NCBI GenBank assembly: GCA_016178585.1
Contig: JACOTA010000018.1
Span: 34,442-98,441 of the forward strand
DNA length: 64,000 nucleotides
Origin: Nitrospirota bacterium
GTDB taxonomy: Bacteria; Nitrospirota; Nitrospiria; JACQBW01
Direction: 5' to 3'
Below the pieces are notes generated by a model. It ran no database searches and was not told the origin of the DNA. It worked only from the letters and a program-made list of their open reading frames with translations. Made by a program: the position numbers and the translations under genes. Shown piece by piece: positions 5,766-60,995 of the stretch. Every line of letters begins with the position of its first letter. Within the stretch, counting starts at the first letter, position 1.

Positions 5766-7283
5766 ATGCCTTCTGGTCAAAACCGCGCTGATTTTGTTTT
5801 ATTGCTGCTGACTATCTTTATTTGCGGGATGATCGTGCTTGTCCTTGAAGTGCTGGGATCACGAATCCTGAGCCCCTATTTTGGGATCTCCTTATTCATC
5901 TGGACCTCGCTCATTACGGTTACCTTGATTTCGCTCTCTCTGGGGTACTGGATTGGGGGAATTCTCTCAGACCGTTATCAAAACCGGGATCTTTTTTATC
6001 TTCTGATCCTGGTTTCGGGATTTTTTGTCATGGTGATTCCGTTGATTCAAAAGCCGGTTTCTCTCGCGATGACCTCGTTCGGCCCGCGGTTGGGATGTTT
6101 AACGACCGCTTTTACCCTTTTCACCGTTCCCCTGACCTTATTGGGAATGGTGGCCCCGTTTTCCTTAAAACTTTCTCTCAGGGAAATAGATCGGGCGGGA
6201 AAGATTGCCGGAAATTTGTATGCGCTTTCCACCCTTGGCGGGATCATGGGAACATTGTTGGTGGGTTTCTGGCTGATTCCCAATCTGGGGCTGAAAAATA
6301 TTTTATTTGTTATTTCTATTTCCCTTTCTATTTTGCCGGCAATTCACTTTATGAAAACCAAAAACTGGATGCCGGCGCTGGGCTGTCTTTCGGTCATTTT
6401 CATCAGCGGAGTCTTGATGATTTATTTTTCTCAAAGAACTCAGGCCGGGAAAATTATTTTTAAATCAGAAAGTTATTACGGCCAGTTAAAGGTTCTCAAT
6501 GATCTAAACACGCATCTGTTGATGGTCGACGGGGCGATTCAGACCGCCTATCAGATAGACCTCCATCAATCCAAAGCTCCTTACACAGCGATGATTGAAG
6601 AGGTTCTAAAAGCTTACCGGGAGCAATCGACCACCAGGTTTCTCAATGGAGCCGTCATCGGATTGGGAGGGGGGATCATTCCGGAATCGGGGTATCATTC
6701 GGGTGATTCGATTGATATTGTCGAAATCGATCCCCGAATGCCGGTCGTCGCTCAAAAATTTTTTGAATTTCATCCCGAACGGTTTAATCTCATTCTCGAA
6801 GATGCCCGTCATTTTTTAAATGGGAACAAAAAAAAATATGACTACATTGTTCTGGACGTTTTCGCGGGAGAATCGTCTCCTTTTTATTTATTGAGTCAGG
6901 AGTGTTTTGAACAGGTAAGGAACAGTTTGACGGACGACGGCATTCTGGTGATGAACACCATCGGACTTTTTACCGGCGAGGGTTCGGAGTTTACCCAATC
7001 GATTTATAAAACCCTGCAACAAAAATTTCCCCACAGAGCGCTTTTAACTGTTTCTTCCAGAGATAATTTCACGAATTATATCATGCTGGCTTCGAACCGG
7101 CCTCTGGACCCTTTGATTGCTTCCTCCGGAAAACTTTTTTCCGGAGAAGTCCATTTAAAAGATGAAGCGGGGTTAGTCCTTACCGATGATTATAATCCGG
7201 CGGATTATCTGGAACAAAAGGTTGCCCTGGAATGGCGGTTGGCGATCTGGAGGGGAACCGTCTCCGAGATTCTGCTGGATTGA
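5766..7283 (+). CDS. Fused polytopic membrane domain + spermidine/spermine synthase-like (aminopropyltransferase-fold) protein
   Basis: N-terminal ~200 aa with multiple TM helices; C-terminal methyltransferase/spermidine-synthase-like fold (VIGLGGGII..DIVEIDP...VLDVFAGE). Confidence 0.7.
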   Translation: MPSGQNRADFVLLLLTIFICGMIVLVLEVLGSRILSPYFGISLFIWTSLITVTLISLSLGYWIGGILSDRYQNRDLFYLLILVSGFFVMVIPLIQKPVSLAMTSFGPRLGCLTTAFTLFTVPLTLLGMVAPFSLKLSLREIDRAGKIAGNLYALSTLGGIMGTLLVGFWLIPNLGLKNILFVISISLSILPAIHFMKTKNWMPALGCLSVIFISGVLMIYFSQRTQAGKIIFKSESYYGQLKVLNDLNTHLLMVDGAIQTAYQIDLHQSKAPYTAMIEEVLKAYREQSTTRFLNGAVIGLGGGIIPESGYHSGDSIDIVEIDPRMPVVAQKFFEFHPERFNLILEDARHFLNGNKKKYDYIVLDVFAGESSPFYLLSQECFEQVRNSLTDDGILVMNTIGLFTGEGSEFTQSIYKTLQQKFPHRALLTVSSRDNFTNYIMLASNRPLDPLIASSGKLFSGEVHLKDEAGLVLTDDYNPADYLEQKVALEWRLAIWRGTVSEILLD

Positions 7284-8179: not shown

Positions 8180-8686
8180 ATGATTATTCCTTATCAGGGG
8201 ATTTGTCCAATAGTACCTTCGTCCGTTTTTATTGCCCCCGGAGCGGTTATCATCGGGGATGTGGAAATCGGAGAGAGTTCCAGCGTCTGGTTTAATACGG
8301 TGGTTCGTGGAGATGTTCATTTTATTCGTATCGGCTCCAACACCAATATCCAGGACCTGTCGATGCTCCACGTTACCCGGAAAACCCATCCTTTGAAAAT
8401 CGGAAACAATGTCACTGTTGGCCACAGGGTGATTCTTCATGGTTGTACCATCGGGAATTTATGCCTGATCGGCATGGGGGCGGTGGTGATGGATGGCGCG
8501 GTGGTGGAAGATGGCGCTTTTATCGGAGCCGGCTCTCTGGTTTCAGAGGGGAGTGTGATTCCGGCGGGGATGCTTGCATTCGGCGTGCCGGCAAAGCCGA
8601 AACGTCCGTTAACGCCGGAAGAAAAGGCCTTTCTGACCCTCTCCGCCAAAAATTATGTCGAAGACGCCCGGACATATATTACGTAG
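8180..8686 (+). CDS. Gamma-carbonic-anhydrase / left-handed beta-helix hexapeptide-repeat family protein (PaaY/CaiE/YrdA-like)
   Basis: Hexapeptide repeats (IGDVEIGESSSVWFNTVVRGD, IGNNVTVGHRVILHGCTIGN); conserved His ligands. Confidence 0.8.
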   Translation: MIIPYQGICPIVPSSVFIAPGAVIIGDVEIGESSSVWFNTVVRGDVHFIRIGSNTNIQDLSMLHVTRKTHPLKIGNNVTVGHRVILHGCTIGNLCLIGMGAVVMDGAVVEDGAFIGAGSLVSEGSVIPAGMLAFGVPAKPKRPLTPEEKAFLTLSAKNYVEDARTYIT

Positions 8687-8710
8687 GGGCAGGTCCCCGT
8701 GCCTGCCCTG
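8684..8710 (+). repeat. REP element (GTAGGGGCAGGTCCCCGTGCCTGCCCTG), immediately 5' of the RAYT gene
   Basis: Hairpin GGGCAGG-N8-CCTGCCC; identical copies elsewhere in the window. Confidence 0.85.
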
Positions 8711-8725
8711 AATACATGATTCGAT

Positions 8726-9319
8726 ATGACATATAATCCAGATATCCACAAACGCCATTCCTTAAGGTTAAAGGGATTTGATTATGCTCAAACGGGCGCT
8801 TATTTCATTACAATATGCACCCAAAATCGGGAATGTTTGTTTGGTAAGGTGGTAAATGATCAAAGACACCTTAATGATGCGGGAGAAATGATTCTGACTT
8901 CCTGGAACGAATTGCCACGGCATTATCCGGGGGTTGATGTTGACCAATTTGTGGTAATGCCCAATCACGTTCATGGCATTATTATTTTAACTGTAGGGGC
9001 AGGTCCCCGTGCCTGCCCTGAATTGCATATTAAAAAAAGGCAACCAGAGGAAATTTCTCCTGCATTATCCTTGTTATCTTTGTCGGATATAATACAACGG
9101 TTTAAATCATTGACAACGACTCATTATCTCCAGGGTGTCATACAAACCGGCTGGCCCCCTTTTCATAAAAAATTATGGCAACGAAATTACTATGAACATG
9201 TTATCCGAAATGAAGAGAGTTTAAATCGCATCCGGCAATATATCCATGATAATCCTTTAAATTGGAATATAGATGAAGAAAATCCGGAAGGGCAGGCACG
9301 GGGACCTGCCCCTACATAA
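8726..9319 (+). CDS. REP-associated tyrosine transposase (RAYT; IS200/Y1 HuH family, COG1943) carrying an in-frame internal REP and a REP-derived C-terminus
   Basis: N-terminal ...YFITICTQNRECLFG...; HuH motif VMPNHVHGIII; C-terminal helix LSDIIQRFKS...LWQRNYYEHVIRNEESLNRIRQYIHDNPLNW with catalytic Tyr; REP copies at 8993-9020 (translated TVGAGPRACPE) and 9290-9316 (translated EGQARGPAPT-stop). Confidence 0.8.
   Translation: MTYNPDIHKRHSLRLKGFDYAQTGAYFITICTQNRECLFGKVVNDQRHLNDAGEMILTSWNELPRHYPGVDVDQFVVMPNHVHGIIILTVGAGPRACPELHIKKRQPEEISPALSLLSLSDIIQRFKSLTTTHYLQGVIQTGWPPFHKKLWQRNYYEHVIRNEESLNRIRQYIHDNPLNWNIDEENPEGQARGPAPT
8993..9020 (+). repeat. REP element inside the RAYT ORF
   Basis: Same 27-mer as 8684. 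Confidence 0.85.
9290..9316 (-). repeat. REP element (inverse orientation) forming the 3' end of the RAYT ORF
   Basis: GGGCAGGCACGGGGACCTGCCCCTACA. Confidence 0.85.
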
Positions 9320-9343
9320 TATATTTTCTTTTTGATTCATTCG

Positions 9344-9370
9344 TAGGGGCAGGTCCCCGTGCCTGCCCTT
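9344..9370 (+). repeat. REP element downstream of RAYT
   Basis: GTAGGGGCAGGTCCCCGTGCCTGCCCT. Confidence 0.85.
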
Positions 9371-9386: not shown

Positions 9387-10277
9387 ATGGACCTGGCACA
9401 TAAAGAATATCTGGAGGTTTCCGTCGAAGTTGACCTTAATTTTCAGGAAACCCTTTCTTCATATCTTATTGAAAGAGGTGCCTCGGGAACCTGGGTCGAT
9501 GAGAGGAAGGTCAAGGCATATTTTAATCCTTTGGTTTTTTCTCTCTCACAGGTGGAAAAACAAATCGCCATATTTTTCCTCGAATTCCGTCGGGAAGGGG
9601 TTAAGGTTGAGTCTGGAGCTGTTGTCGTCCAAACACATCCCTATGAAGACTGGAACGCCGAATGGAAAAAGTTTTTTAAACCGATCAATGTCACTCCCCG
9701 TTTAACCATTTCCCCCCCCTGGGAGTCATATACCCCAAAAACGAATGAGGAAAAGGTTATTCTCATCGATCCCGGCCTGGGTTTTGGAACCGGGACCCAT
9801 CCGACCACCCGGAACTGCCTGGTCTTTCTCGACCGGATTCTCTCCGCGCATCCTGATCCTGTTCAACTGAAAGTGTTGGACCTGGGATCCGGTTCGGGTA
9901 TTCTGGCAATTGCCGCCGCTCGTTTAGGAGCCGGCTATATTGTGGCGGCGGATATCGACGGCGACGCCGTAGAGTCGATGCGGAATTCTTTCCTTTTAAA
10001 TCAGGTCCATCGCCATATCCGAATAAGGCTGGGGTCTATTTTTCAGGCAGATCGAAACGCGTATGACTTAATCCTGGCCAATTTAACGGCGGAAGATTTA
10101 ATCCTCGTAAGCCGTGAGCTTCAGGGCGCGCTTCTTCCGGAGGGCGGGCTCATTCTTTCGGGTATTCTGGCGGAAAAAAAAGAAAAGCTTGAAAAAACCC
10201 TGCACGAGTTGATGCTTAAAAAGAGGGACGAAATTGTGGAAGGACCCTGGGTAACCCAGATGTGGCAGAACGCTTGA
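9387..10277 (+). CDS. prmA: Ribosomal protein L11 methyltransferase
   Basis: LIDPGLGFGTGTHPTTRNCL...VLDLGSGSGILAIAA...AADIDGDAV; typical PrmA length. Confidence 0.85.
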   Translation: MDLAHKEYLEVSVEVDLNFQETLSSYLIERGASGTWVDERKVKAYFNPLVFSLSQVEKQIAIFFLEFRREGVKVESGAVVVQTHPYEDWNAEWKKFFKPINVTPRLTISPPWESYTPKTNEEKVILIDPGLGFGTGTHPTTRNCLVFLDRILSAHPDPVQLKVLDLGSGSGILAIAAARLGAGYIVAADIDGDAVESMRNSFLLNQVHRHIRIRLGSIFQADRNAYDLILANLTAEDLILVSRELQGALLPEGGLILSGILAEKKEKLEKTLHELMLKKRDEIVEGPWVTQMWQNA

Positions 10278-10302
10278 GTATCATATACAATGAAATATAT
10301 TA

Positions 10303-10330
10303 CGTAGGGGCAGGTCTCCGTGCCTGCCCT
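10303..10330 (+). repeat. REP element (one mismatch: GGTCTCCG)
   Basis: TACGTAGGGGCAGGTCTCCGTGCCTGCCCT. Confidence 0.8.
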
Positions 10331-10365
10331 GCAATAGAAAGGAATGTTGTAATGAATCAAAAAGG

Positions 10366-10887: not shown

Positions 10888-11479
10888 TCGGGAGGACCCC
10901 GATCCTGTTTTAAAGGAGGCCGCGCTCCGGGTCAAGGAAGGCAAAATAATCGTTTTTCCAACTGACACGCTTTACGGGATCGGCGTGGACATTTACAATG
11001 ATAGAGCAATCGATAGGGTTTTCTTGATCAAAAAAAGGGACAGCGGGAGCCCCATTTTAATACTGATCGAAAAGCCTTCTGATCTATTTCCTCTTGTTAA
11101 AAAGGTTCCCCCCGCGGGGCGAGAGCTTATCGACCGGTTCTGGCCGGGACCGCTGACGTTAATCTTCGACGCTTCGGAAAGTCTTTCCCCGCGACTGACC
11201 GGAAATACCGGAAAAATAGGAATCCGATGCCCCGATTCCAGGCTTGTCCAGCGTCTCCTCTCTTTTTTAAAAAGCCCGATTACCGCCACCAGCGCCAATC
11301 GGTCTCATGAACCTCCCTGTCAAAACGCTTCGGAAGCCGAAAAATATTTTGGGAACCAGGTCGATTTAATCCTGGATGGAGGAACTCTGGTTTCCGAACC
11401 CTCTACCGTGGCCGACGTGACCGGAGGGACCATCAAGATCATCAGGCAGGGCAAGATAAAAATAGAAAATCATACGTAG
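10865..11479 (+). CDS. tsaC: L-threonylcarbamoyladenylate synthase (Sua5/YrdC/TsaC family)
   Basis: GKIIVFPTDTLYGIGVD...ILILIE...GPLTLIF; the 281-aa track ORF begins inside purE, so the start is trimmed to ATG 10865. Confidence 0.8.
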   Translation: MTEIVKINREDPDPVLKEAALRVKEGKIIVFPTDTLYGIGVDIYNDRAIDRVFLIKKRDSGSPILILIEKPSDLFPLVKKVPPAGRELIDRFWPGPLTLIFDASESLSPRLTGNTGKIGIRCPDSRLVQRLLSFLKSPITATSANRSHEPPCQNASEAEKYFGNQVDLILDGGTLVSEPSTVADVTGGTIKIIRQGKIKIENHT

Positions 11480-11502
11480 GGGCAGGTCCCCGTGCCTGCC
11501 CT
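11474..11502 (+). repeat. REP element
   Basis: ACGTAGGGGCAGGTCCCCGTGCCTGCCCTTG. Confidence 0.85.
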
Positions 11503-11541
11503 TGTGTCGAAGCAGGATGTGCCTGCCCGATAAGGATAAAT

Positions 11542-13044
11542 TTGAAAATCAGGTTAACTTTAACGTCAAAATTAGTTCTCATCATGCTGTTTTTATCCTT
11601 TTTATCGCTGGGAGCGTCGTTTTATCTTTATGCCCGCACGGAACAGGCGCTGGTAAAAGAAATGGAAGATCATATCAACGAGTTGTCAAACGCCATTTCA
11701 GTGAGCGTGGAAGAACTGACCAGCCCGGAACGGACGACGGAGAAGCGGCTGCAGGATTACGTCAAGCGGCTCGAAAAAAGGGGTGTAAAGGAAATATCGA
11801 TTGTCAGCAACGAAAAAGAGGTCATTGCCAGTTCAAATCCAAAACGGGTGGGGGCAAAAATTGATCCCAAACGAAAGGATTTGTTGATTACCGCGAAACT
11901 GGGAGATCAGCTTCCTTCTCCCACTCAGAAGGCCTATAATCTTCTTGTCCCGATCGTGGTTGAAGGCGAACAGCTGGGGTACGCTCATATCAGCATGGTT
12001 TTTGACGATTATGAAAAGCTGATTGAATCCCACTATTTGGACCGTCTGGTGGCAACCCTGATCGTCTTTTCAGTCGGGATCATGGTTTCGATTTTTCTCT
12101 CGTGGCGCTACACCCGGCCTATTTATCAAATCATGGGAGCCGCGAAAAAAGTCGCCAGGGGCGATTTAAGCCAGACGATCCCTGTCAGAAAAGGGGATGA
12201 CGAAATCAACCAGTTAACGCACAGTTTTAACGAAATGATTGAAAAATTACGGCAGAACAGGGTCCTCGAAGAGAGGCTTCGTGAAACCGAACATTTGACG
12301 GCGCTGGGGCAATTCGCATCGGGGATCGCGCATGAGATTCGGAATCCGCTTAACTTTATTTCCCTGAGTATTGATCATCTCAAAGAAAAAATCGGTCATG
12401 CCTCTCCGGAAGAACAAAAAAAAATGGGCGACCTGATGACCAGCATCAAATCCGAAACCTTTCGTCTCAACCATATGGTCGAAAACTTTTTAAAATACGG
12501 CCGTCCATTAAAACTCGATATCAAACAGGTGAATCTGAACCTTTTGTTGAAAGAGGTGCTCAATTTAGCCAATCAAAAAGCGATTGAACAGGGAATCGAG
12601 ATCAGCTATGTTCCGGAGGACACCCCTTTGATTGACGGTGATGAAGAAAAAATTAAAACCTGCCTGATGAACGTCGTCGCGAATGGCCTTCAGGCAATGC
12701 CAACAGGTGGAACCCTGTCGATACGAATGACCGAACGACCTGAAGAGGTGATCCTCGAAATTACCGATACCGGTCAGGGGATTAGCCCGGAGAATTTAAA
12801 GAAAGTTTTCCAGCCCTATTTTACCACCAAACAACTTGGAATCGGCCTCGGGCTGGCCCTCACCAGACGCATTATTGAAGAACACCACGGCACAATAGAG
12901 ATCAGCTCAAGCCCTGAAAAAGGCACAAAAGTTTTAATGACGTTGCCATTGAATTACGAGATGGTTCCTGAAGCGGGAAGCGAGGAACTGGCTTGGCCAG
13001 GCCGAGCGAGGGGTTCGGGGGCATCGGAGGATTTTACGAAGTGA
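11542..13044 (+). CDS. Sensor histidine kinase (two TM helices flanking a periplasmic domain, HAMP, HisKA, HATPase_c)
   Basis: TM1 LVLIMLFLSFLSLG, TM2 LIVFSVGIMVSIFL; H-box SGIAHEIRNPLNFI; N/G-boxes NVVANGLQAM...DTGQGI...GLGL. Confidence 0.85.
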   Translation: MKIRLTLTSKLVLIMLFLSFLSLGASFYLYARTEQALVKEMEDHINELSNAISVSVEELTSPERTTEKRLQDYVKRLEKRGVKEISIVSNEKEVIASSNPKRVGAKIDPKRKDLLITAKLGDQLPSPTQKAYNLLVPIVVEGEQLGYAHISMVFDDYEKLIESHYLDRLVATLIVFSVGIMVSIFLSWRYTRPIYQIMGAAKKVARGDLSQTIPVRKGDDEINQLTHSFNEMIEKLRQNRVLEERLRETEHLTALGQFASGIAHEIRNPLNFISLSIDHLKEKIGHASPEEQKKMGDLMTSIKSETFRLNHMVENFLKYGRPLKLDIKQVNLNLLLKEVLNLANQKAIEQGIEISYVPEDTPLIDGDEEKIKTCLMNVVANGLQAMPTGGTLSIRMTERPEEVILEITDTGQGISPENLKKVFQPYFTTKQLGIGLGLALTRRIIEEHHGTIEISSSPEKGTKVLMTLPLNYEMVPEAGSEELAWPGRARGSGASEDFTK

Positions 13045-14451: not shown

Positions 14452-14578
14452 TCAAGAGAGATAGACGGCGCATTCATTTATTGATCATGTCATTGCGAGC
14501 ACCGAAGGGTGCGTGGCAATCTTACCGTAAAGTTTTGAGATTGCTTCACTTTGTTCGCAATGACAACTTTCTATCTCT
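14452..14578. mobile_element. MITE (variant with GCACCGAAGGGTGCGTGGCAATCTTACCG core), degenerate left TIR, right TIR CTATCTCTTGGG
   Basis: Near-identical to the copies at 33113 and (inverse) 19145/54107. Confidence 0.8.
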
Positions 14579-14729
14579 TGGGTGTGATTCCTTACAATTT
14601 TTTAAACATACCTTATTTAGGGTATAAACTACCTTATAACAGGTGTTCATAAGGACATGGCTAAGGGTTTTATTTTTATAACTATTTGAAAAATATAATA
14701 AAATTATTTTTACGATCTATTTTTTTTAA

Positions 14730-14745
14730 TGGTATTATTATTGCA
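14730..14745 (+). promoter_or_regulatory. Sigma-54 (-24/-12) promoter TGGTATTATTATTGCA, upstream of the 14801 gene
   Basis: GG at 14731-32 and GC at 14743-44 with exact 10-nt spacing (consensus TGGCAC-N5-TTGCA); AT-rich context; CCTTAT / CCTTAT / ATAAGG half-sites at 14611, 14632, 14649, about 80-120 bp upstream. Confidence 0.6.
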
Positions 14746-14800: not shown

Positions 14801-15031
14801 ATGAAAAAAATCTACTCTTTGGTTATTGCCATGATGATGTTGGTTGCTTTCGGTACAGTGACCTTTGCCGCTGACGCCGCTGCTCCAGCTGCTCCGGCCG
14901 CATCAGAAACTCCTAAGGCTGAAGCTTCTTCAAAAACTGTAAAGAAAATGAAGAAGAAAAAAGCCCAAAAAAAAGCTAAAAAAGAAGAAAAGAAAGAAGA
15001 AATGAAAGAAGCTGCGCCAGCGGCGAAATAG
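14801..15031 (+). CDS. Small secreted protein (76 aa): signal peptide + Ala/Pro linker + highly lysine-rich C-terminal tail
   Basis: Strong RBS GGAAGGGGGTGAAAATAAATG; signal peptide MKKIYSLVIAMMMLVAFGTVTFA; tail KKMKKKKAQKKAKKEEKKEEMKE; sigma54 promoter upstream; terminator downstream. Confidence 0.55.
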   Translation: MKKIYSLVIAMMMLVAFGTVTFAADAAAPAAPAASETPKAEASSKTVKKMKKKKAQKKAKKEEKKEEMKEAAPAAK

Positions 15032-15039
15032 TTTTTTTG

Positions 15040-15133
15040 ACGGACTTTGGAATGGTCGTCCTTAGACCGTGACGGACTTTGGAATGGTCGTCCTTAGACC
15101 GTGACGGACTTTGGAATGGTCGTCCTTAGACCG
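15040..15133 (+). repeat. Three tandem direct copies of a 32-bp unit GACGGACTTTGGAATGGTCGTCCTTAGACCGT
   Basis: Read directly; copies abut with no spacers. Confidence 0.9.
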
Positions 15134-15160
15134 GAATGATCAAAATACAGCTTACAGCAA

Positions 15161-15193
15161 AAAAGCACGGTATCTTTACCGTGCTTTTTTTTT
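15161..15193 (+). terminator. Rho-independent terminator (GCACGGTA-TCTTT-ACCGTGC + T9)
   Basis: Perfect 8-bp stem followed by a T-run. Confidence 0.8.
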
Positions 15194-15243
15194 GACGTTG
15201 ATAAATAAATTTCTTTATGACAAAATCTAAAATAAATTATTTT

Positions 15244-15285
15244 ATGGTCTCGTAAAAAGTCGTCATTCCCGCGAAAGCGGGAATC
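15244..15285. repeat. Small repeat family D (ATGGTCTCGTAAAAAGTCGTCATTCCCGC-GAAA-GCGGGAAT hairpin)
   Basis: Second copy at 58321-58390. Confidence 0.7.
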
Positions 15286-15307
15286 TATAGCAAACGTAAT
15301 AAGTAAT

Positions 15308-15394
15308 GTGTCATTGCGAGGAGCGGAGCGACGAAGCAATCCCTTTTTTATGTCAGCTAAGCAACGAGATTGCTTCACTTCGTTCGCAATGACG
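15308..15394. mobile_element. MITE family A element
   Basis: TGTCATTGCGAGGAGCGGAGCGACGAAGCAATCC ... GAGATTGCTTCACTTCGTTCGCAATGACGA. Confidence 0.8.
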
Positions 15395-15426
15395 ACCTTT
15401 AACATGATAAGCTGTCCCTTTTTTCG

Positions 15427-15488
15427 GTCTAACTACGACCATTCCAAAGTCCGTCACGGTCTAAGGACGACCATTCCAAAGTCCGTCA
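15427..15488 (-). repeat. Two inverted copies (one degenerate) of the 32-bp unit found at 15040-15133
   Basis: ACGGTCTAAGGACGACCATTCCAAAGTCCGTC is the reverse complement of the unit. Confidence 0.85.
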
Positions 15489-15546
15489 CAGACTTTTTAA
15501 GAGACCATCATTTAAGAATCGAATATAAATAAGAAAGGTCATTTAA

Positions 15547-15876
15547 ATGAGAAAATCATCGTTCTTTTTAGTTTTATTGTTAGTCGTATTTCTTCCCTTA
15601 ATATCGGGTTGTGAATCGAAAAAGTTAAAAGAAGAAAATACAAAGCTCAAACAGCAGTTTGAAAAAATGACCGAAGAAAACAAGTCGCTTCTCAATGAAG
15701 TGGATCAATTTAAAAAAGAAAACGAACAAATCAAGGAGAAAACCGCTTCTCTTCAGAATGAAAATAGTTCTCTTAAAAAGCAGATTGAATCTCTTAAGAA
15801 AAAACCTGTAAAAAAACCGGTAAAAAAGGCGCCGGCAAAGAAGAAGAAAACAAAAAAAGGAAAACACCCGGCTTAG
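15547..15876 (+). CDS. Coiled-coil lipoprotein (109 aa) with a Lys/Pro-rich C-terminal tail
   Basis: Lipobox LPLISGCES; heptad-like KLKQQFEKMTEENKSLLNEVDQFKKENEQIKEK; tail KKKPVKKPVKKAPAKKKKTKKGK. Confidence 0.55.
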   Translation: MRKSSFFLVLLLVVFLPLISGCESKKLKEENTKLKQQFEKMTEENKSLLNEVDQFKKENEQIKEKTASLQNENSSLKKQIESLKKKPVKKPVKKAPAKKKKTKKGKHPA

Positions 15877-19041: not shown

Positions 19042-19144
19042 TTGCAAAAAATTCTGATCATCAATGCAAACGCAGACCCCTTTTCTTTTTATTCTTCTCG
19101 CAGTGTTGTGCCAAAACGGCCAGGTCTTTACTTTTCATTCTTGA

Positions 19145-19284
19145 CCCAAGAACAGAGTTAGAAAGCTGTCATTGCGAACAAAGTGAAGCAATCTCAAGAC
19201 TTTACGATAAGATTGCCACGCACCCTTCGGTGCTCGCAATGACATGATTAATAAGTGGGTGCGAAGTCTATCGCTGATCTTGGG
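19145..19284. mobile_element. Complete MITE with 17-bp TIRs (CCCAAGAACAGAGTTAG ... CTATCGCTGATCTTGGG)
   Basis: Near-identical to 54107-54251. Confidence 0.85.
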
Positions 19285-19340
19285 CTTGACAATGACTTAG
19301 TATATTGAGTAAAATTACTTAATTTATTGAGTAAAATGTT

Positions 19341-20638: not shown

Positions 20639-21460
20639 GTGCGGCCGGGCAAGGTCGCATCATCCAGCGGGTGAGAATCCCGTCCCGGAAGGCAGGCAAG
20701 CCACCGGGTAGCAAGTCCTTGGAGGGAGGAGGGTAACCTCTGACTTTAAGCGTAGGATAGCAAGCAAACAGGCCGGAGCCTCGAAAGTGACGCGATGGGA
20801 AGGACGACGCTGTTCAAGAAGCGGAAGTCAAAATGGATTTCTCTTCGTAACGGCCAAGAAGAGGCCACTTCCCCGGGGTCGGAGACCATGGCATGTTTGA
20901 CATCAGGATAAGGAAGCCACAAAGTGAACAGCGACATGAGGAGACACTCACCGTTCACAGAAGCGGGGAAGGGGTGGGAACGAAATTGTGTCGCATCGCG
21001 GAGAAAGCTCGAAGGGAACCGGCTTTTCGGTTCACCAGTTTATATCATCTGATGAACCGGGAATTATTACGGGAATGTTTTGAGGCGTTGCGAAAAGATG
21101 CGGCCTCAGGCATTGACGGGGTGACCAAGGAGCAGTACGGCTATAAACTGGAGGAACATCTGGAAGAGCTTGTAGAACGGCTCCACCGGATGGCTTACAG
21201 ACCGCAAGGGGTAAGAAGGGTCTATATCCCCAAGCCGGGAAGTCATAAACAACGGCCAATAGGGATACCCAGCCTTGAAGATAAACTGGTACAGGCGGGA
21301 CTGGTTTCAGCTTTTGCTCAAACGGTATCCTCATCCCCAACCTAGAATTCAGGTTAGGCTATTTTGACCTGCGAAGTGACATTTTGAGGAGCCGTGTGCG
21401 TTAATTGCGCAAGCACGGTTCTGTGAGGGGCCGGGGCCAACGGGTGTAGGGTTGAAATAC
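20639..21460 (+). mobile_element. Compact group II intron (about 0.8 kb) with internally deleted IEP: 5' GUGCG start, truncated RT ORF in domain IV, canonical domain V, short domain VI
   Basis: 5' GTGCGGCC at 20639; RT0-RT2 protein motifs; domain V 21388-21421 AGCCGTGTGCG-TTAATT-GCGCAAGCACGGTTC with AGC triad and 2-nt bulge. Confidence 0.65.
20893..21345 (+). pseudogene. Truncated group II intron-encoded reverse transcriptase (only RT0-RT2; RT3-7, X and En regions absent)
   Basis: FTSLYHLMNRELLRECFEALRKDAASGIDGVTKEQY...VRRVYIPKPGSHKQRPIGIPSLEDKLVQ; ORF stops 45 nt before domain V. Confidence 0.7.
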
Positions 21461-21509
21461 TGTGGCACCGCCGGGAAACCAGGCGGCAACGGAGAAGACG
21501 AATCTCAAC

Positions 21510-22472
21510 CTATAACACCTGAAGAAACCGGTCTACTCGACCTTTATACAACCTCATCAACTTTTGTAAAGACTGATCAGGATTTCTTCTTTCTGCCTGA
21601 CGTTGAAGGTGAGATACCCGTGAGGAAGAAATACCAAACATCTTCGCCACCTCCTTTAACCTTAAATTAACCACCTGTCTGAAGAGATACACCGTAGCAT
21701 GATACGCTTCCTGATGGTGACGTTTAAAAATATCCTTTTGACCAACCCCGTATACCTGACATATTTTGTTTAAAACTTCTTCTTTTTGGGGCCTCATGGG
21801 CTGACTCTGCTCTTTTGGTACCTCACTTAAGGAATAATGCTCAATCTGTTTTTCGCTTTCCTTTAAAAATTCTTCTTTCCCCAACCAGATTTGCCCCCGT
21901 AAATTCTCCCATGGAGAACTCATCCTTATTCCTTCTTTCACAAATCTCTGATAAGCCACTCTGGCTGATCCTTCTCCTCTTCCAAATTGACTCAATACCC
22001 ATTTTGTTTCTAACCATTCCGGTGGTTTTTCTAAACCCATTGTTGGAAGAAGACTGCTCCAGGGCCATTCTTCTATTTTCGCAACGATTCCCGCTCGAAT
22101 TGGATTGAGCACAATATACCGGCATAACTCAAGAAGATAGTTCTCTCGATCAACAATGATGCTTTTGTATCGCCCCTGGAATACATGCCCAACCATCCCA
22201 TGACGGCGGTTAAACGCTTGTGTGTAGACCCCATTGAGTCTGCGCATTCCATCCACTAAATTGCCTTCCGGAGTTTCAATCAGTATGTGATAATGATTGG
22301 TCATGAGGCAATAAGCATAGCACTTCCAGCCCTGTTGTTGAATCTCACGGCCCAGGAATTTTAAAAAAAACTCCCGATCTTGATCATCAAGATAGATGTC
22401 CTGCTGACGGTTCCCACGCGCAGTCAGATGATAGAGCGCTCCCGGATATTCTATGCGTAATGGTCTTGCCAT
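21510..22472 (-). CDS. IS200/Y1-type HuH transposase-like protein (COG1943, long form) with C-terminal DnaA-C-like HTH
   Basis: PGALYHLTARGN...CYAYCLMTNHYHILIE...GHVFQGRYKS; C-terminal QVYGVGQKDIFKRHHQEAYHATVYLFRQVVNLRLKEVAKMFGISSSRVSH. Confidence 0.8.
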   Translation of the reverse strand: MARPLRIEYPGALYHLTARGNRQQDIYLDDQDREFFLKFLGREIQQQGWKCYAYCLMTNHYHILIETPEGNLVDGMRRLNGVYTQAFNRRHGMVGHVFQGRYKSIIVDRENYLLELCRYIVLNPIRAGIVAKIEEWPWSSLLPTMGLEKPPEWLETKWVLSQFGRGEGSARVAYQRFVKEGIRMSSPWENLRGQIWLGKEEFLKESEKQIEHYSLSEVPKEQSQPMRPQKEEVLNKICQVYGVGQKDIFKRHHQEAYHATVYLFRQVVNLRLKEVAKMFGISSSRVSHLQRQAERRNPDQSLQKLMRLYKGRVDRFLQVL

Positions 22473-25984: not shown

Positions 25985-26124
25985 CCCAAGAACAGCGATA
26001 GGATTTGTAACTCCTTGTTTTGCCTGTCATCGCGAGCGCCCGCAGGGTGCGTGGCGATCTCGGTTCACGATGGCGAGATTGCTTCGCTTCGCTCGCAATG
26101 ACAACTTTCTATCGCTGTTCTTGG
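25985..26124. mobile_element. Complete MITE with TIRs (CCCAAGAACAGCGATAG ... CTATCGCTGTTCTTGG), in the trpE leader
   Basis: Near-identical (about 95%) to 39935-40076. Confidence 0.85.
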
Positions 26125-29356: not shown

Positions 29357-29378
29357 TACAAATATGCCGTCCCTTTTT

Positions 29379-29484
29379 GTAGGGGCAGGCCCCCGTGCCT
29401 GCCCTGATTTAAAAAACATTTTTTGGTTCTCAACCTGGTGTTTTGTCAGGATTTTCTGGGCAGGCACGGGGACGTGCCCCTACA
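29379..29484. repeat. Inverted REP pair (REPIN-like doublet) between trpD and trpC
   Basis: TGTAGGGGCAGGCCCCCGTGCCTGCCCTG at 29379-29406 and GGGCAGGCACGGGGACGTGCCCCTACA at 29458-29484. Confidence 0.85.
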
Positions 29485-33112: not shown

Positions 33113-33312
33113 CCCAAGACCAGCGATAGACTTCGCACTCACTTATTAATCATGTCATTGCGAGCACCGAACGGTGCGTGGCAATCTTATCGTAAAGTCT
33201 TGAGATTGCTTCACTTTGTTCGCAATGACAGCTTTCTAACTCTGTTCTTGGGTATCTCTCAAGAGAGATAAAAAGTGTCATTGCGAGCCGAAGGCGAAAC
33301 AGTCTCATAACA
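33113..33312. mobile_element. Complete MITE (TIRs CCCAAGACCAGCGATAG ... CTAACTCTGTTCTTGGG) abutting a 5' fragment of a second element
   Basis: The junction creates TATCTCTCAAGAGAGATA near-palindrome at 33252-33269. Confidence 0.8.
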
Positions 33313-39934: not shown

Positions 39935-40076
39935 CCCAGGAACAGAGATAGGATTTGCAACTCCTTGTTTTGCCTGTCATCGCGAGCGCCCGCAGGGTGC
40001 GTGGCGATCTCGGTTCACGATGGCGAGATTGCTTCGCTTCGCTCGCAATGACAACTTTCTATTTCTGTTCTTGGGT
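39935..40076. mobile_element. Complete MITE with TIRs (CCCAGGAACAGAGATAG ... CTATTTCTGTTCTTGGG)
   Basis: About 95% identical to 25985-26124. Confidence 0.85.
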
Positions 40077-42519: not shown

Positions 42520-43323
42520 TTACCGATTAGATTGAAGTTTTTTCTGAATAAGATCGGCTCCCTTTTTACCCGACAGAAGCATTGACCCAAACGCGGGGCC
42601 CATTCTGGGAGTTCCGAAAACAGCGGCGACAGAAAGCCCAACCAAAAAGAGGTTGGGATAAACTTCCCCTGTCTTTTCCATGATACATTCTTCTGATTTT
42701 GCGACCCACATCGGACCATTGCCGGGTACATTTTTATACAGGCCACGTTTAGCCAATAACTGAACGGCGATGGCATCGTGGCCGGTGGCATCAACCACAA
42801 TCTTGCCTTCAAGGCCTATCGGGTCGACATGAGCCGTCCCTTTTGGCATTTCATAGATCGGGGCGTAGTTGACGACGACCCCTTCCACGTTATTATTTTC
42901 TCCCCGGATGATTAAATCGCGAAGAACCGTTAAATTAAGGACTTTAATTCCGGCATCAAAGGCGCTTCCAATGAGTTTGGAGCAGGCATGAGGCGCATCG
43001 ACGATATACATCTCTTTCGTCATTTTTTTGCAGGGAACGCCGATTTTTTCAAGGATTTCCTGGGCGGGGGCGGCAATGGTTGTTTTGTTCATCAGATAGC
43101 CACCCGACCAGAACCCTCCGCCAAGATGATTGGTCTGCTCGATGATCAGGACTTTTACTCCGGAAGAAGCCAGTTCCTTTCCGCAAACCAGACCTGAAGG
43201 TCCCGCACCGATAATGATGACATCCGATTCCACCAGAGAGTCAAATTGCTGATAAAACTCTCTGGCAATAGCCCGGGTAATCTCTTTTTCATAGGTGGGT
43301 GCAATTTTGTAGGGATCAAGCAT
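42520..43323 (-). CDS. thi4: Thiazole synthase, Thi4/THI1 family
   Basis: Dinucleotide-binding fold DVIIIGAGPSGLVCGKEL; ...VVDATGHDA; length 267 aa. Confidence 0.8.
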   Translation of the reverse strand: MLDPYKIAPTYEKEITRAIAREFYQQFDSLVESDVIIIGAGPSGLVCGKELASSGVKVLIIEQTNHLGGGFWSGGYLMNKTTIAAPAQEILEKIGVPCKKMTKEMYIVDAPHACSKLIGSAFDAGIKVLNLTVLRDLIIRGENNNVEGVVVNYAPIYEMPKGTAHVDPIGLEGKIVVDATGHDAIAVQLLAKRGLYKNVPGNGPMWVAKSEECIMEKTGEVYPNLFLVGLSVAAVFGTPRMGPAFGSMLLSGKKGADLIQKKLQSNR

Positions 43324-44004
43324 GGTTTAATCCTAGCTTAGAGTCACCCGCCAAGTCAAGATTCTTGCCCACCCCCAGTTTTATCCCAAAGAACCGAGAC
43401 CAAGGCCGGGGGAGGGGGTTGGAGGAATGGGGCGTACGCCAAACAACCCTTTAAGAGACAAACGTGCCTGCCTGAAGTGCGTCTCATGAGCATTTCAGGC
43501 CATTGCAATCACGACAGAGGAGACACTAACGGGAGACGTTTTGACCCGTGACGGAAACTCCCTCCCCTGGCCTGAAAAAACGAATATTTTAAAAAACTGG
43601 GGGTGGCAAGAGCGGAGATTTATTCTTTCCCTGTTTTTTGGATTTATGGGAAACAATTTGCCACTTTCTTATCAATTTCATTAAAAAAATCAATTGATTG
43701 ACTAAAATTCTGCTCCTACTGCAATATTTTTAAATAAAATTATTAAATTTCAATGGGTTATAGGTTTGGCAAAGAAATTGCTATATACTCTCATGATAGT
43801 CTTGTGGTAATATCATTTTTATTTTTAGGGAGAGGTCATTTTGGGAGAATTATTGATTGTTTTGTCATTTTGCTTGGTTGTAACTTTACACAAATATCTT
43901 TAAGTTTTTTTAATTCACTTCCCCCCATCAATCCAGTCCAAAATAAAGACGACTGTTTTTATTTGACTTCCATTCAAACAGCATATTAAGATAAAAACCT
44001 AAAC

Positions 44005-44147
44005 ATTTCGCAAGGGGTGCCGGCGGCTGAGAGTCTTTCAAAAGAGAGGACAACCCTTTGAACCTGATCTGGATAATGCCAGCGAAGGGAAGCGGTTAAA
44101 AGAATAACGAAAACCGTGTCTCCGATGGCTGACGCGGTTTTTTTTTG
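44005..44147 (+). promoter_or_regulatory. TPP (THI-box) riboswitch with intrinsic-terminator expression platform, upstream of thiC
   Basis: GGGGTGCC...GCTGAGAG...AACCCTTTGAACCTGATCTGGATAATGCCAGCGAAGGGAA (44014-44094), then ACCGTGTC...GACGCGGT + T9 (44112-44147). Confidence 0.85.
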
Positions 44148-44242
44148 TCCTTTTGTTTATCAGGTCGCTTTAATGATTAGGTTAGGATGCGAAGATTCGG
44201 CTTTGCCGATCTGAGCGCGGGGTTCGGGGGCAGAAAAAAGAT

Positions 44243-44303: not shown

Positions 44304-46211
<1,908 letters not shown>

Positions 46212-46567: not shown

Positions 46568-46641
46568 TGATTAGTTCTCCTTAAATGATGTGATTTCCCT
46601 GCAAATGAATACAAACGTAAAAATAATTGTGACATGTTTCT

Positions 46642-46696
46642 TGTAGGGGCAATCCCCCGTGGTTGCCCAGGGCAGGCACAGGGGCCTGCCCCTACG
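46642..46696. repeat. Composite REP doublet (same variant as 36195)
   Basis: TTGTAGGGGCAATCCCCCGTGGTTGCCCAGGGCAGGCACAGGGGCCTGCCCCTACGA. Confidence 0.8.
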
Positions 46697-54093: not shown

Positions 54094-54106
54094 AAACGAA
54101 TAACTT

Positions 54107-54251
54107 TACCCAAGAACAGCGATAGAAAGTTGTCATTGCGAGCGAAGCGAAGCAATCTCAAGATTTTACGATAAGATTGCCACGCACCCTTCGGTGCTCG
54201 CAATGACATGATTAATAAGTGGGTGCGAAGTCTATCGCTGTTCTTGGGCTT
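54107..54251. mobile_element. Complete MITE with TIRs (CCCAAGAACAGCGATAG ... CTATCGCTGTTCTTGGG)
   Basis: About 97% identical to 19145-19284. Confidence 0.85.
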
Positions 54252-58320: not shown

Positions 58321-58390
58321 ATGGTCTCGTTAAAAAGGCGTCATTCCCGCTAAACTTGTCCCCGTATGCTTTTAGCGGGGAGCGGGAATC
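58321..58390. repeat. Repeat family D copy (ATGGTCTCGTTAAAAAGGCGTCATTCCCGC...GCGGGGAGCGGGAATC)
   Basis: Matches 15244-15285. Confidence 0.7.
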
Positions 58391-59753: not shown

Positions 59754-60797
59754 ATGAAACAGTTATTTTTGATCGGTTTTTTCTTCATCTTGTTTGGGTG
59801 GTTGTATCCCTCTGCCTCCCCTTCCCCCTCTTTTGCCCAAACCATCCCAACTCAGCCCCCTCAAGATCCGGCGCCTAAGCTCAAACACTCTCGCTGGGGA
59901 GTGGAGGTCTTCTCCGGCTTTTACCGGCCTCGCTTGAAGACTTTGAACACGGTCATTTCTAATCCCCGGCTGGGTATTCTTCAAGACCCTAATTTTCTCC
60001 TCCCCGGCAATGAGCAGTTTCAATCGAATAAAAAAAATATAGTGATGGATGATTTATCCGGCAATGTCGAGTTTGGGGTTGAACTCAACTATGATCTTTC
60101 TCAAAAATCGGCATTATTTCTTTCCACCAGTTTATGGCATGGCCAGACCATTAATGGAGATATTATTCCGATCCCTATTTTTGCCAGACCCACCCCTGCG
60201 CATTTTGTTTCCTGTGTTTCCGTTCCGGTGGAATTTGATTACCGGTGTGCCTCCCGGAGCGCCCGGTATAACCTGGTTTTAGAACAGTTCTGGGCAGGCT
60301 GGCGCTATCTTCTCTATGAGGATTCAAGGCAAAGCCGGATTTATGCCGACCTCGGACTTTTTGGAATCTCCCTGGCTTTTTTAACCATGGACAGCAGTGT
60401 TAGGCTCGTCAGTGACAACCTCAATTTCGCGTCAGTGAGCTCGACGGAGGCGATGGGCTGGGGATATAGCAGCCGGGTGGGGGTTAAGGGAGAATATTTT
60501 TTATCCAAAAATTTTTCTTTCGGGGGTGGAATCCGTTATATTGTGGGAGATATTAAAAATTTAGCCGTTACCCGCTATTTTCCAGCTGGATTTCAGGAGT
60601 TTCTTTCTCCACAGGCCGGAGTTCCTAATGCCAACACGGCCCAATTTCCTCCTCCGCCTCCCAAAATCGGTGACGATATTATTTTCGGACAGGTCACCAC
60701 CACCTCCACGAATAATGATGTGACATCAAATATTGAAAAACTGGCCATTGAGGTCGATGGTTTTAGTCTGGATCTGTTTTTTAAAATCTACTTTTAG
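59754..60797 (+). CDS. Probable outer-membrane beta-barrel protein (347 aa)
   Basis: Signal peptide; Pro-rich linker; alternating amphipathic beta pattern; C-terminal ...FFKIYF. Confidence 0.5.
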   Translation: MKQLFLIGFFFILFGWLYPSASPSPSFAQTIPTQPPQDPAPKLKHSRWGVEVFSGFYRPRLKTLNTVISNPRLGILQDPNFLLPGNEQFQSNKKNIVMDDLSGNVEFGVELNYDLSQKSALFLSTSLWHGQTINGDIIPIPIFARPTPAHFVSCVSVPVEFDYRCASRSARYNLVLEQFWAGWRYLLYEDSRQSRIYADLGLFGISLAFLTMDSSVRLVSDNLNFASVSSTEAMGWGYSSRVGVKGEYFLSKNFSFGGGIRYIVGDIKNLAVTRYFPAGFQEFLSPQAGVPNANTAQFPPPPPKIGDDIIFGQVTTTSTNNDVTSNIEKLAIEVDGFSLDLFFKIYF

Positions 60798-60995
60798 GAA
60801 ATGAGGATCAGGTTTTGCCTGTCCGAGCTTGGGGTATGGGGGCATCTGGAGGCTCCGAGCTAGCTTTGGGAGCGATTCCCCAGCGTACATAAGGTTTTAA
60901 TCATTTCTCCGCACGGGTCCCCATTAAAATTAGGGAATAAATATCATCTTCCGGAGGTTTAATATGAAAGTCCTATAAAAGGGATGTAAACAAAG

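Follow-up and report, generated by a model that had tools for sequence, protein, structure and literature searches.

Repetitive extragenic palindromic (REP) elements, together with BIME and REPIN elements, are mobilized by RAYT (Y1) transposases. Invertible promoters, as at fimS, hin and the Bacteroides PSA loci, usually have recombinase sites of 10-35 nt, and the ends of transposons such as Tn7, Mu and IS21 carry multiple transposase-binding repeats. Here we describe a 32-nt repeat, termed unit B, that invites comparison with all of these systems. It was identified in a 64-kb stretch of contig JACOTA010000018.1 (hereafter the window; coordinates count from its first letter), which belongs to a metagenome-assembled genome (MAG) of an uncultured Nitrospirota bacterium of the class Nitrospiria. 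Three direct copies of unit B follow a gene for a small lysine-rich protein, and two inverted copies precede a lipoprotein-tadB-tadC operon. We conclude, with a probability of about 60%, that the direct copies form a lineage-specific minisatellite in the 3' untranslated region (3'UTR) of the Lys-rich gene, that the inverted copies arose by a secondary local inverted duplication, and that the two arrays are not the ends of a mobile element.

Like a minisatellite (or variable number tandem repeat), unit B is arranged head-to-tail without spacers, differs in copy number between genomes and is homogenized within a genome; unlike one, it has an extra inverted pair 291 bp away, and its last unit is constrained together with a terminator. 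With REP, BIME and REPIN elements it shares ~30-35-nt units that lie after stop codons and before terminators in both orientations, and the window also contains Y1_Tnp genes and GTAG repeats; it differs from them in that it is not dispersed, has no GTAG head, no significant hairpin and no RAYT flank, and consists of abutting copies. As in invertons, inverted repeats surround a segment of ~300 bp with a promoter reading into pilus genes, but the arms here measure 64-73 nt and are built of tandem units, no invertase is encoded in the 64-kb window, and the arrangement is not kept in relatives. Direct repeats at one end, inverted repeats at the other and TG...CA-like outer ends recall miniature inverted-repeat transposable elements (MITEs) and the ends of Tn7, Mu and IS21; here, however, the interior is native and syntenic, one 'end' occurs alone in a relative, and neither a target-site duplication nor a second copy was found in the DNA searched. 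Finally, a conserved segment that ends in an intrinsic terminator and is perfectly complementary to a neighbouring leader resembles 3'UTR-derived small RNAs and REP-like 3' stabilizers, yet here no Rfam family matches and the complementary target is in this genome only.

Organization of the unit B arrays

Unit B is the 32-nt sequence TGACGGACTTTGGAATGGTCGTCCTTAGACCG, read in the phase TGAC...GACCG. The two arrays and the gene that precedes them are as follows.

14801-15031, plus strand: open reading frame (ORF) for a small secreted Lys-rich protein of 76 amino acids (aa), whose 3'UTR contains the tandem array
15038-15133, plus strand: three identical tandem copies of unit B (Tandem Repeats Finder: period 32, 3.0 copies, 100% matches)
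15425-15488, minus strand: two inverted copies of unit B (Tandem Repeats Finder: 15425-15489, period 32, 2.0 copies, 93%)

A search allowing up to three mismatches revealed exactly five copies of the unit in 64 kb, compared with 0.00 expected from 100 shuffles. The outer right copy (15457-15488) was identical to the left units. The inner right copy (15425-15456) carried two adjacent substitutions, CC to AG in the sense of the unit, which count as three mismatches in the phase used by the initial annotation of this DNA. Both arrays consisted of whole units only, in one common phase, and a repeat search aligned them as inverted arms of 64 nt at 97% identity (15038-15101 and 15425-15488) or of 73 nt at 93%. 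The initial annotation had described three direct and two inverted 32-mers that form a large inverted-repeat structure; this description was confirmed, with its coordinates moving by 1-2 nt only. It had also stated that the locus is not a CRISPR, and we agree, as the units abut and no unique spacers separate them.

The left array begins 7 nt past the stop codon of the Lys-rich gene and ends 25 nt short of the A-run of an intrinsic terminator. Because it lies between stop codon and terminator, the left array is 3'UTR. The right array falls within the predicted 5'UTR of the tad operon, and both arrays are predicted to lie in transcribed sequence. A single unit folded at -3.7 kcal/mol (z -0.75), no better than shuffled sequences. 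A hairpin function for the single unit was rejected on this result and on the lack of compensatory changes between the copies found in a relative, described below.

Comparison with Nitrospiria relatives

We compared the locus in five syntenic Nitrospiria genomes (L005, L006, L032, L036 and L030), all of which have a syntenic orthologue of the Lys-rich gene. TadB was ~70% identical in L005, L006 and L032 and 84% identical (aa) in L030; the response regulator encoded upstream was 86% identical in L036 and 91% (aa) in L030, which is the closest relative. In L030, two diverged tandem copies of unit B were located at 9445-9508, between the stop codon and the orthologous box and terminator, and the L030 locus contained no inverted copy and no MITE. 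The other four genomes had the terminator and promoter block and no unit B; the 3'UTR slot that unit B occupies was empty in L005 and L032 and held a 24-nt repeat, Q, in L006 and L036.

The genomes form a series, from no unit in four relatives through two diverged copies in L030 to three homogenized copies plus an inverted pair in the window. Since two copies are present at the orthologous site of L030, the tandem array is an old local feature of the lineage that the window and L030 share; since the right arm is missing from all relatives, it is new in this genome. The change at the orthologous site, from two diverged copies to three identical head-to-tail copies, is that of a minisatellite. 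The feature itself is of an ordinary kind, a local tandem and inverted duplication, and the comparative series is unusually informative.

A conserved terminator and promoter between the arrays

The segment between the arms contains, in order, a 25-nt box, an intrinsic terminator, an AT-rich stretch, a hairpin (GTCATTCCCGCGAAAGCGGGAATC) and a family-A MITE. All of these except the box had been listed between the arrays in the initial annotation, and all were present.

15134-15158, plus strand: pre-terminator box GAATGATCAAAATACAGCTTACAGC, 25 nt, native, 25/25 identical to L030
15159-15193, unstranded: bidirectional intrinsic terminator (A6, 8-bp stem, 4-nt loop, T9), from the sequence and inverted pair I9
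15198-15226, plus strand: sigma70-type promoter TTGATA-17-(TG)CAAAAT of the lipoprotein-tadB-tadC operon, from a promoter scan, in a block conserved in five relatives

The terminator stems GCACGGTA (15165-15172) and TACCGTGC (15177-15184) enclose the loop TCTT and are followed by T9 at 15185-15193. A consensus scan missed this native terminator, probably owing to the A/T runs that extend its stem. The promoter block was kept in L030, L005, L006, L032 and L036, and it lies 25-60 nt upstream of the ATG in L030, L005 and L006, relatives without an insertion there. Because terminator and promoter are conserved in the relatives, they are native and not the cargo of an insertion.

Alignment of the six genomes (window 15134-15193, L030 9509-9570, plus L005, L006, L032 and L036) revealed variation in the loop alone, with no change in the box core ACAG(C)TTACAGC, in the A-run, in either stem of the terminator or in its T-run; the TadB proteins of the same six genomes are only ~70-84% identical. 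The last unit, box and terminator of the window matched those of L030 at 87 of 92 positions, with four of the five differences in the terminator loop. By comparison, four-fold degenerate sites were 58.7% identical (304/518; P about 5e-15) and coding DNA 78-86%. The last unit, box and terminator are evidently under purifying selection and, with an identity far above that of four-fold sites, the unit belongs to a constrained 3'UTR. The conserved feature could be a DNA site, an element acting in termination or stability, or an RNA derived from the 3'UTR. Conservation of a 3' segment that runs up to an intrinsic terminator, as seen here, is the pattern of 3'UTR-derived small RNAs; no Rfam family matched the region at the gathering threshold or at E<=1. 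The box and terminator, invariant in six Nitrospiria genomes, are a candidate 3'UTR-derived RNA or other constrained element and may prove the more durable lead from this locus.

The inverted pair lies in an inserted block

Alignments to L030, L005, L006 and the other relatives revealed a block of ~280 bp, block E, that is absent from all five and whose ends are uncertain by about 10 nt.

~15237-15515, unstranded: block E, ~280 bp, bounded by inverted pair I5, absent from all five relatives
15244-15285, plus strand: D-family head ATGGTCTCGTAAAAAGTC followed by hairpin GTCATTCCCGCGAAAGCGGGAATC (hairpin at 15262-15285)
15310-15393, unstranded: family-A MITE with two inverted arms, GTCATTGCGAG...GAAGCAATC (repeat families D2, D6 and D16)
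15408-15415, minus strand: TAAGCTGT, the reverse complement of ACAGCTTA in the native box (15147-15154); a weak match, scored as well by 36 of 2000 shuffles
15491-15508, minus strand: inverted D-family head ATGGTCTCTTAAAAAGTC, at the right end of block E

Block E begins ~10 nt past the -10 hexamer, in the predicted 5'UTR of the lipoprotein-tad operon, and the distance from -10 to ATG is 320 nt in the window compared with 31 nt in L030. Inverted pair I5 (25 nt, 15237-15261 and 15491-15515, 84%) has D-family heads as its arms. Between them the order is head and D hairpin, MITE A, a degenerate head (15394-15403), 21 nt, the two inverted units and the inverted head. The D-family head also occurs with a GTCATTCCCGC hairpin at 58321. 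Candidates for a target-site duplication of block E were AT-rich and ambiguous (AAATAAAT and ATATAAAT). The initial annotation had proposed nested insertions for the whole of 15040-15490; this proposal holds for the right half and fails for the block as a whole, whose interior terminator and promoter are native.

The D hairpin (15251-15289) and one MITE-A arm (15310-15342) gave 91-97% matches in the plasmid collection (H2-H10), in records from Neisseria gonorrhoeae, Sphingopyxis, Photobacterium, Methylosinus and Methylocystis. These short hairpin repeats are common to several phyla.

Searches for unit B elsewhere

An nhmmer profile of four unit variants, run against 451 kb of DNA, gave hits to the five copies of the window, to the two of L030 and to the ends of Logan contigs, and to nothing else. 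A 23-mer from the unit core was absent from 185,579 species-representative genomes, a 21-mer core from the JGI metagenomes and a degenerate 20-mer core from IMG/VR. The tandem-core pattern matched in the JGI metagenomes only a chance 14-nt microsatellite (L031), which is unrelated, and blastn of the block against plasmids returned the D hairpin and the MITE-A arm and no unit B. Unit B is confined to one locus in the 64 kb of the window, in which families A and GTAG-REP have ~7 to >15 copies. Two Y1_Tnp ORFs are present in the window and unit B flanks neither. Within the sequences searched, unit B does not appear to be a dispersed REP-like family.

Origin of the repeat

We propose that unit B is a non-coding module occupying a variable slot, which lies between the stop codon and the conserved box and terminator, and that the common ancestor with L030 already carried two tandem copies. 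Slipped-strand mispairing or unequal recombination would then have produced the homogenized three-copy array seen here. The inverted pair would be a local inverted duplication or gene conversion of the left array, copied through template switching (at a quasi-palindrome) or recombination during MITE-linked remodelling; its units would have come to lie, as they now do, inside the MITE-rich block of ~280 bp just downstream of the -10 of the tad operon. The AG variant of the inner right copy is also found in the first L030 copy (B1), which fits descent from the local array. Three features hint that the left array was the source of the inverted pair and that the pair was not independently inserted: this common variant, the identity of the outer copy with the left units and, weakly, the presence beside the pair of TAAGCTGT, which may be left over from native flank duplicated together with the units. 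Most likely, the inverted pair is a by-product without a dedicated function. On this account the locus is a well-resolved case of a MITE-ridden intergenic region being remodelled, and it corrects the tempting reading of the arrays as mobile element ends.

Several observations weigh against a local origin. The copy numbers (3 and 2) and the orientation rest on a single assembly. Simple inversion of an L030-like B1-B2 array would place the variant and canonical copies in an order other than that of the inverted pair, and whole units in one phase, as both arrays show, would fit a discrete inserted element as well. The 3'UTR slot is insertion-prone, and in L006 and L036 it holds Q, which is proven to be dispersed. 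The search of the genome itself covered 64 kb and that of L030 13.6 kb, so that a family with fewer than ~190 loci per 4 Mb would escape. Finally, the source of unit B could not be traced to the A hairpin, to Q or, more than weakly, to the D-family head. On visual inspection, the A hairpin next to the locus in the relatives seemed a plausible source, but its similarity was not significant (p 0.06-0.4), similarity to Q was not significant, and similarity to the D-family head was weak (p 0.005-0.016, with several comparisons made).

Alternative explanations

Under one alternative, unit B would be a low-copy mobile mini-repeat (REP-, RPE- or MITE-like, mobilized for example by a Y1/IS200-like enzyme) that had entered the locus as two independent multimer insertions. 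Whole units in one phase, a slot that is a hot spot for insertion and holds a repeat (Q) itself found in tandem pairs, the two Y1_Tnp ORFs, the weak likeness to the D-family head and a possible CTTTTT direct repeat around the right array are all consistent with such a history. It is nevertheless unlikely: no further copy was found in 64 kb plus 13.6 kb, compared with 7-15 or more copies per 64 kb for real families, public genome, metagenome, viral and plasmid collections gave no match, the unit has no significant hairpin (z -0.75) or GTAG head and is not beside the Y1_Tnp genes, and its last copy is under purifying selection together with native flank. The mobility suggested in the initial annotation is, within the available data, essentially contradicted, with no copy elsewhere and a comparison that describes a local tandem duplication. 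We give next to no credence to the related suggestion that the 450-bp block is one non-autonomous element or its scar, with the 32-mers as termini or target-site duplications. Its large terminal inverted repeats, outer ends TGAC...GTCA and internal MITEs are what such an element would have, but the terminator and promoter in its interior are native and conserved in five relatives, L030 has the left arm without the right, and there is no second copy in the 451 kb searched or in public collections; target-site duplications, moreover, are direct repeats, and the arrays are inverted and 64-96 nt each. That the arrays reflect a collapsed or chimeric repeat in the assembly is barely to be entertained, even though the source is a MAG and k=31 contigs break within the unit. 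Three such Logan contigs (L001-L003) begin 29 nt inside the outer right unit and run on into the downstream gene, and this junction, 29 nt of the outer unit plus unique downstream sequence, recurs identically at contig ends in at least three SRA runs; as it is repeated in independent Logan contigs, the right junction is not peculiar to one assembly. The context of the left array recurs, with diverged copies, in the independent genome L030. Contigs from two assemblies of near-identical strains (L034 and L035) do not reach the repeat region; they end downstream of it, within the lipoprotein gene or just ahead of its start.

A different set of explanations gives the arrays a function. It is distinctly unlikely that the copied and inverted minisatellite has become a new regulatory device in this one lineage, either through 64-nt sense/antisense pairing or as a 291-bp invertible terminator-promoter cassette; if the inverted pair were functional, however, a tandem repeat would have given rise to a regulatory link, antisense or invertible promoter, in a single evolutionary step. 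In the antisense version, the sigma54-dependent 3'UTR with its three units, possibly processed to a small RNA, would pair over 64 nt with the two reverse-complement units of the tad leader, leading to double-strand cleavage or altered translation. Transcription is predicted for both arrays, co-folding yields a gain of -78.5 kcal/mol relative to the separate folds, a read-through transcript of the whole region would fold at -225.6 kcal/mol (z -16.6), and the strong constraint on the last unit, box and terminator, with box and stems invariant in six genomes, would be unusual for a plain terminator. We regard this link as decidedly improbable, given that its target half is confined to this genome and sits among clustered MITEs of the kind typical of neutral insertions, that no Rfam family corresponds to it, and that the conservation would be explained equally well by a DNA site or by an element acting in termination or stability. 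In the cassette version, the arms (15038-15133 and 15425-15488) would flip the 291-bp segment 15134-15424, with its promoter and bidirectional terminator, and so switch lipoprotein-tadB-tadC off and on; if true, the Tad pilus genes of an uncultured Nitrospirota bacterium would have come under a newly arisen phase switch. Near-identical inverted arms of 64 nt could recombine, and their near-identity suggests ongoing exchange; the arms (64-73 nt, 93-97% complementary) enclose a predicted, conserved promoter that reads across the right arm, the segment is similar in length to classical invertons, and pilus and surface genes lie downstream. Inverton surveys have been carried out with PhaseFinder and DeepInverton (PMC11602134), and inverted repeats frequently flank promoters that are not invertons (PMC11602134). 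Here, the 64-kb window encodes neither a tyrosine nor a serine invertase (an invertase acting in trans, or RecA, is conceivable), the arms are minisatellite and far longer than usual recombinase sites, the arrangement is found in one genome only, with no right arm in L030, and only the ancestral orientation was seen, in a comparison to which k=31 contigs are uninformative as inversion makes no new 31-mers. A phase switch is, on balance, very improbable. Extremely improbable, in turn, is that the units serve as a protein-binding array, a possibility raised in the initial annotation for which we found no support; the DNA-binding protein could be, for example, the adjacent sigma54 activator. The 32-bp period approximates three helical turns, one half (CCTTA) of the CCTTA...TAAGG palindromes found upstream of the sigma54 promoter occurs in the unit, and the last copy is conserved; however, both arrays are positioned downstream of the sigma54-dependent gene, the two copies in L030 are diverged, a half-site of 5 nt would be expected by chance, the relatives have no sites upstream of the tad operon, and beyond L030 there is no conservation of an array, the last copy alone being constrained.

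Gene setting and other repeats

The genes around the repeat region are arranged in the order histidine kinase, sigma54-dependent response regulator, Lys-rich gene, repeat region, lipoprotein, tadB, tadC and Ser/Thr kinase. Two further features define the flanks of the region.

14730-14745, plus strand: sigma54-type promoter TGGTAT-N5-TTGCA of the Lys-rich gene, read from the sequence
15547-15876, plus strand: coiled-coil lipoprotein gene, which opens the lipoprotein-tadB-tadC-Ser/Thr kinase operon

At the matching position L030 has TGGCAT-N5-TTGCA. In the window, the genes for the sigma54 activator and histidine kinase lie directly upstream of the promoter region. CCTTA...TAAGG palindromes occur at 14610-14680, upstream of the sigma54-type promoter (L030 region ~8960-9110), and are candidate sites for the adjacent sigma54 activator. 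A family-A MITE (14457-14578) sits between the regulator gene and these palindromes. The Lys-rich protein had no Pfam match, and exact look-up of this protein and of a spurious ORF across the right array found neither on record. A homology search with the lipoprotein gave distant matches only.

The window is unusually rich in small non-autonomous repeats. MITE-like pairs of 122-148 nt, 91-96% identical and built from GTCATTGCGAG arms, were found at 19140-19287 and 54104-54251, at 25985-26124 and 39935-40074, and at 14457-14578 and 33122-33243. One Y1_Tnp (IS200-like) ORF (8726-9316, plus strand) is bracketed by GTAG-headed palindromic repeats, GTAGGGGCAGGTCCCCGTGCCTGCCC, which occur at 8671-8710, 8981-9020, 9331-9370, 10292-10331, 11464-11503, 29367-29406 and 46631-46670; judged by its layout, this is a classic RAYT/REP arrangement. 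The other Y1_Tnp domain is at the N terminus of a 319-aa ORF (21510-22469, minus strand), which abuts, on the opposite strand, Rfam matches to group II intron domains D1-D4 and D5-D6 (20674-21541, plus strand) that are ~870 nt apart with no intron ORF between them.

The Q repeat of the relatives, GAAGTGCGGAACGGGTTGTCCGC, is 24 nt long. It has 11 sites in 15 kb of L005 (e.g. 9866 and 9890), eight sites in 8 kb of L006 (e.g. 1450, 2994 and 3018) and further sites in L032 (2011 and 2502) and L036 (~5940), with frequent tandem pairs; none was found in the window or in L030. Q also occurs in frame within tadB and tadC coding regions, for example as EVQNGLSAEVRNGLSA in the TadB of L005. In L032, a separate 90-nt insertion related to Q (1970-2060) immediately follows the promoter -10. 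In L036, a MITE with GTCATTCCCG hairpins (6020-6190) lies within the terminator T-run, which is duplicated. The tad intergenic region is thus prone to insertion in other lineages as well.

A 48-nt repeat, GGAAGCGAGGAACTGGCTTGGCCAGGCCGAGCGAGGGGTTCGGGGGCA, was present in three copies (12976-13023, 44185-44232 and 60797-60844). The first copy makes up the 3' terminus of the histidine-kinase ORF together with the junction between kinase and regulator, and the C-terminal tail of that ORF seems to be supplied by the repeat. Elsewhere in the window, a thiamine pyrophosphate (TPP) riboswitch (44003-44107, plus strand) lies upstream of thiC (44313-46211), and a Thi4-family gene (42520-43323) is encoded on the strand opposite to both.

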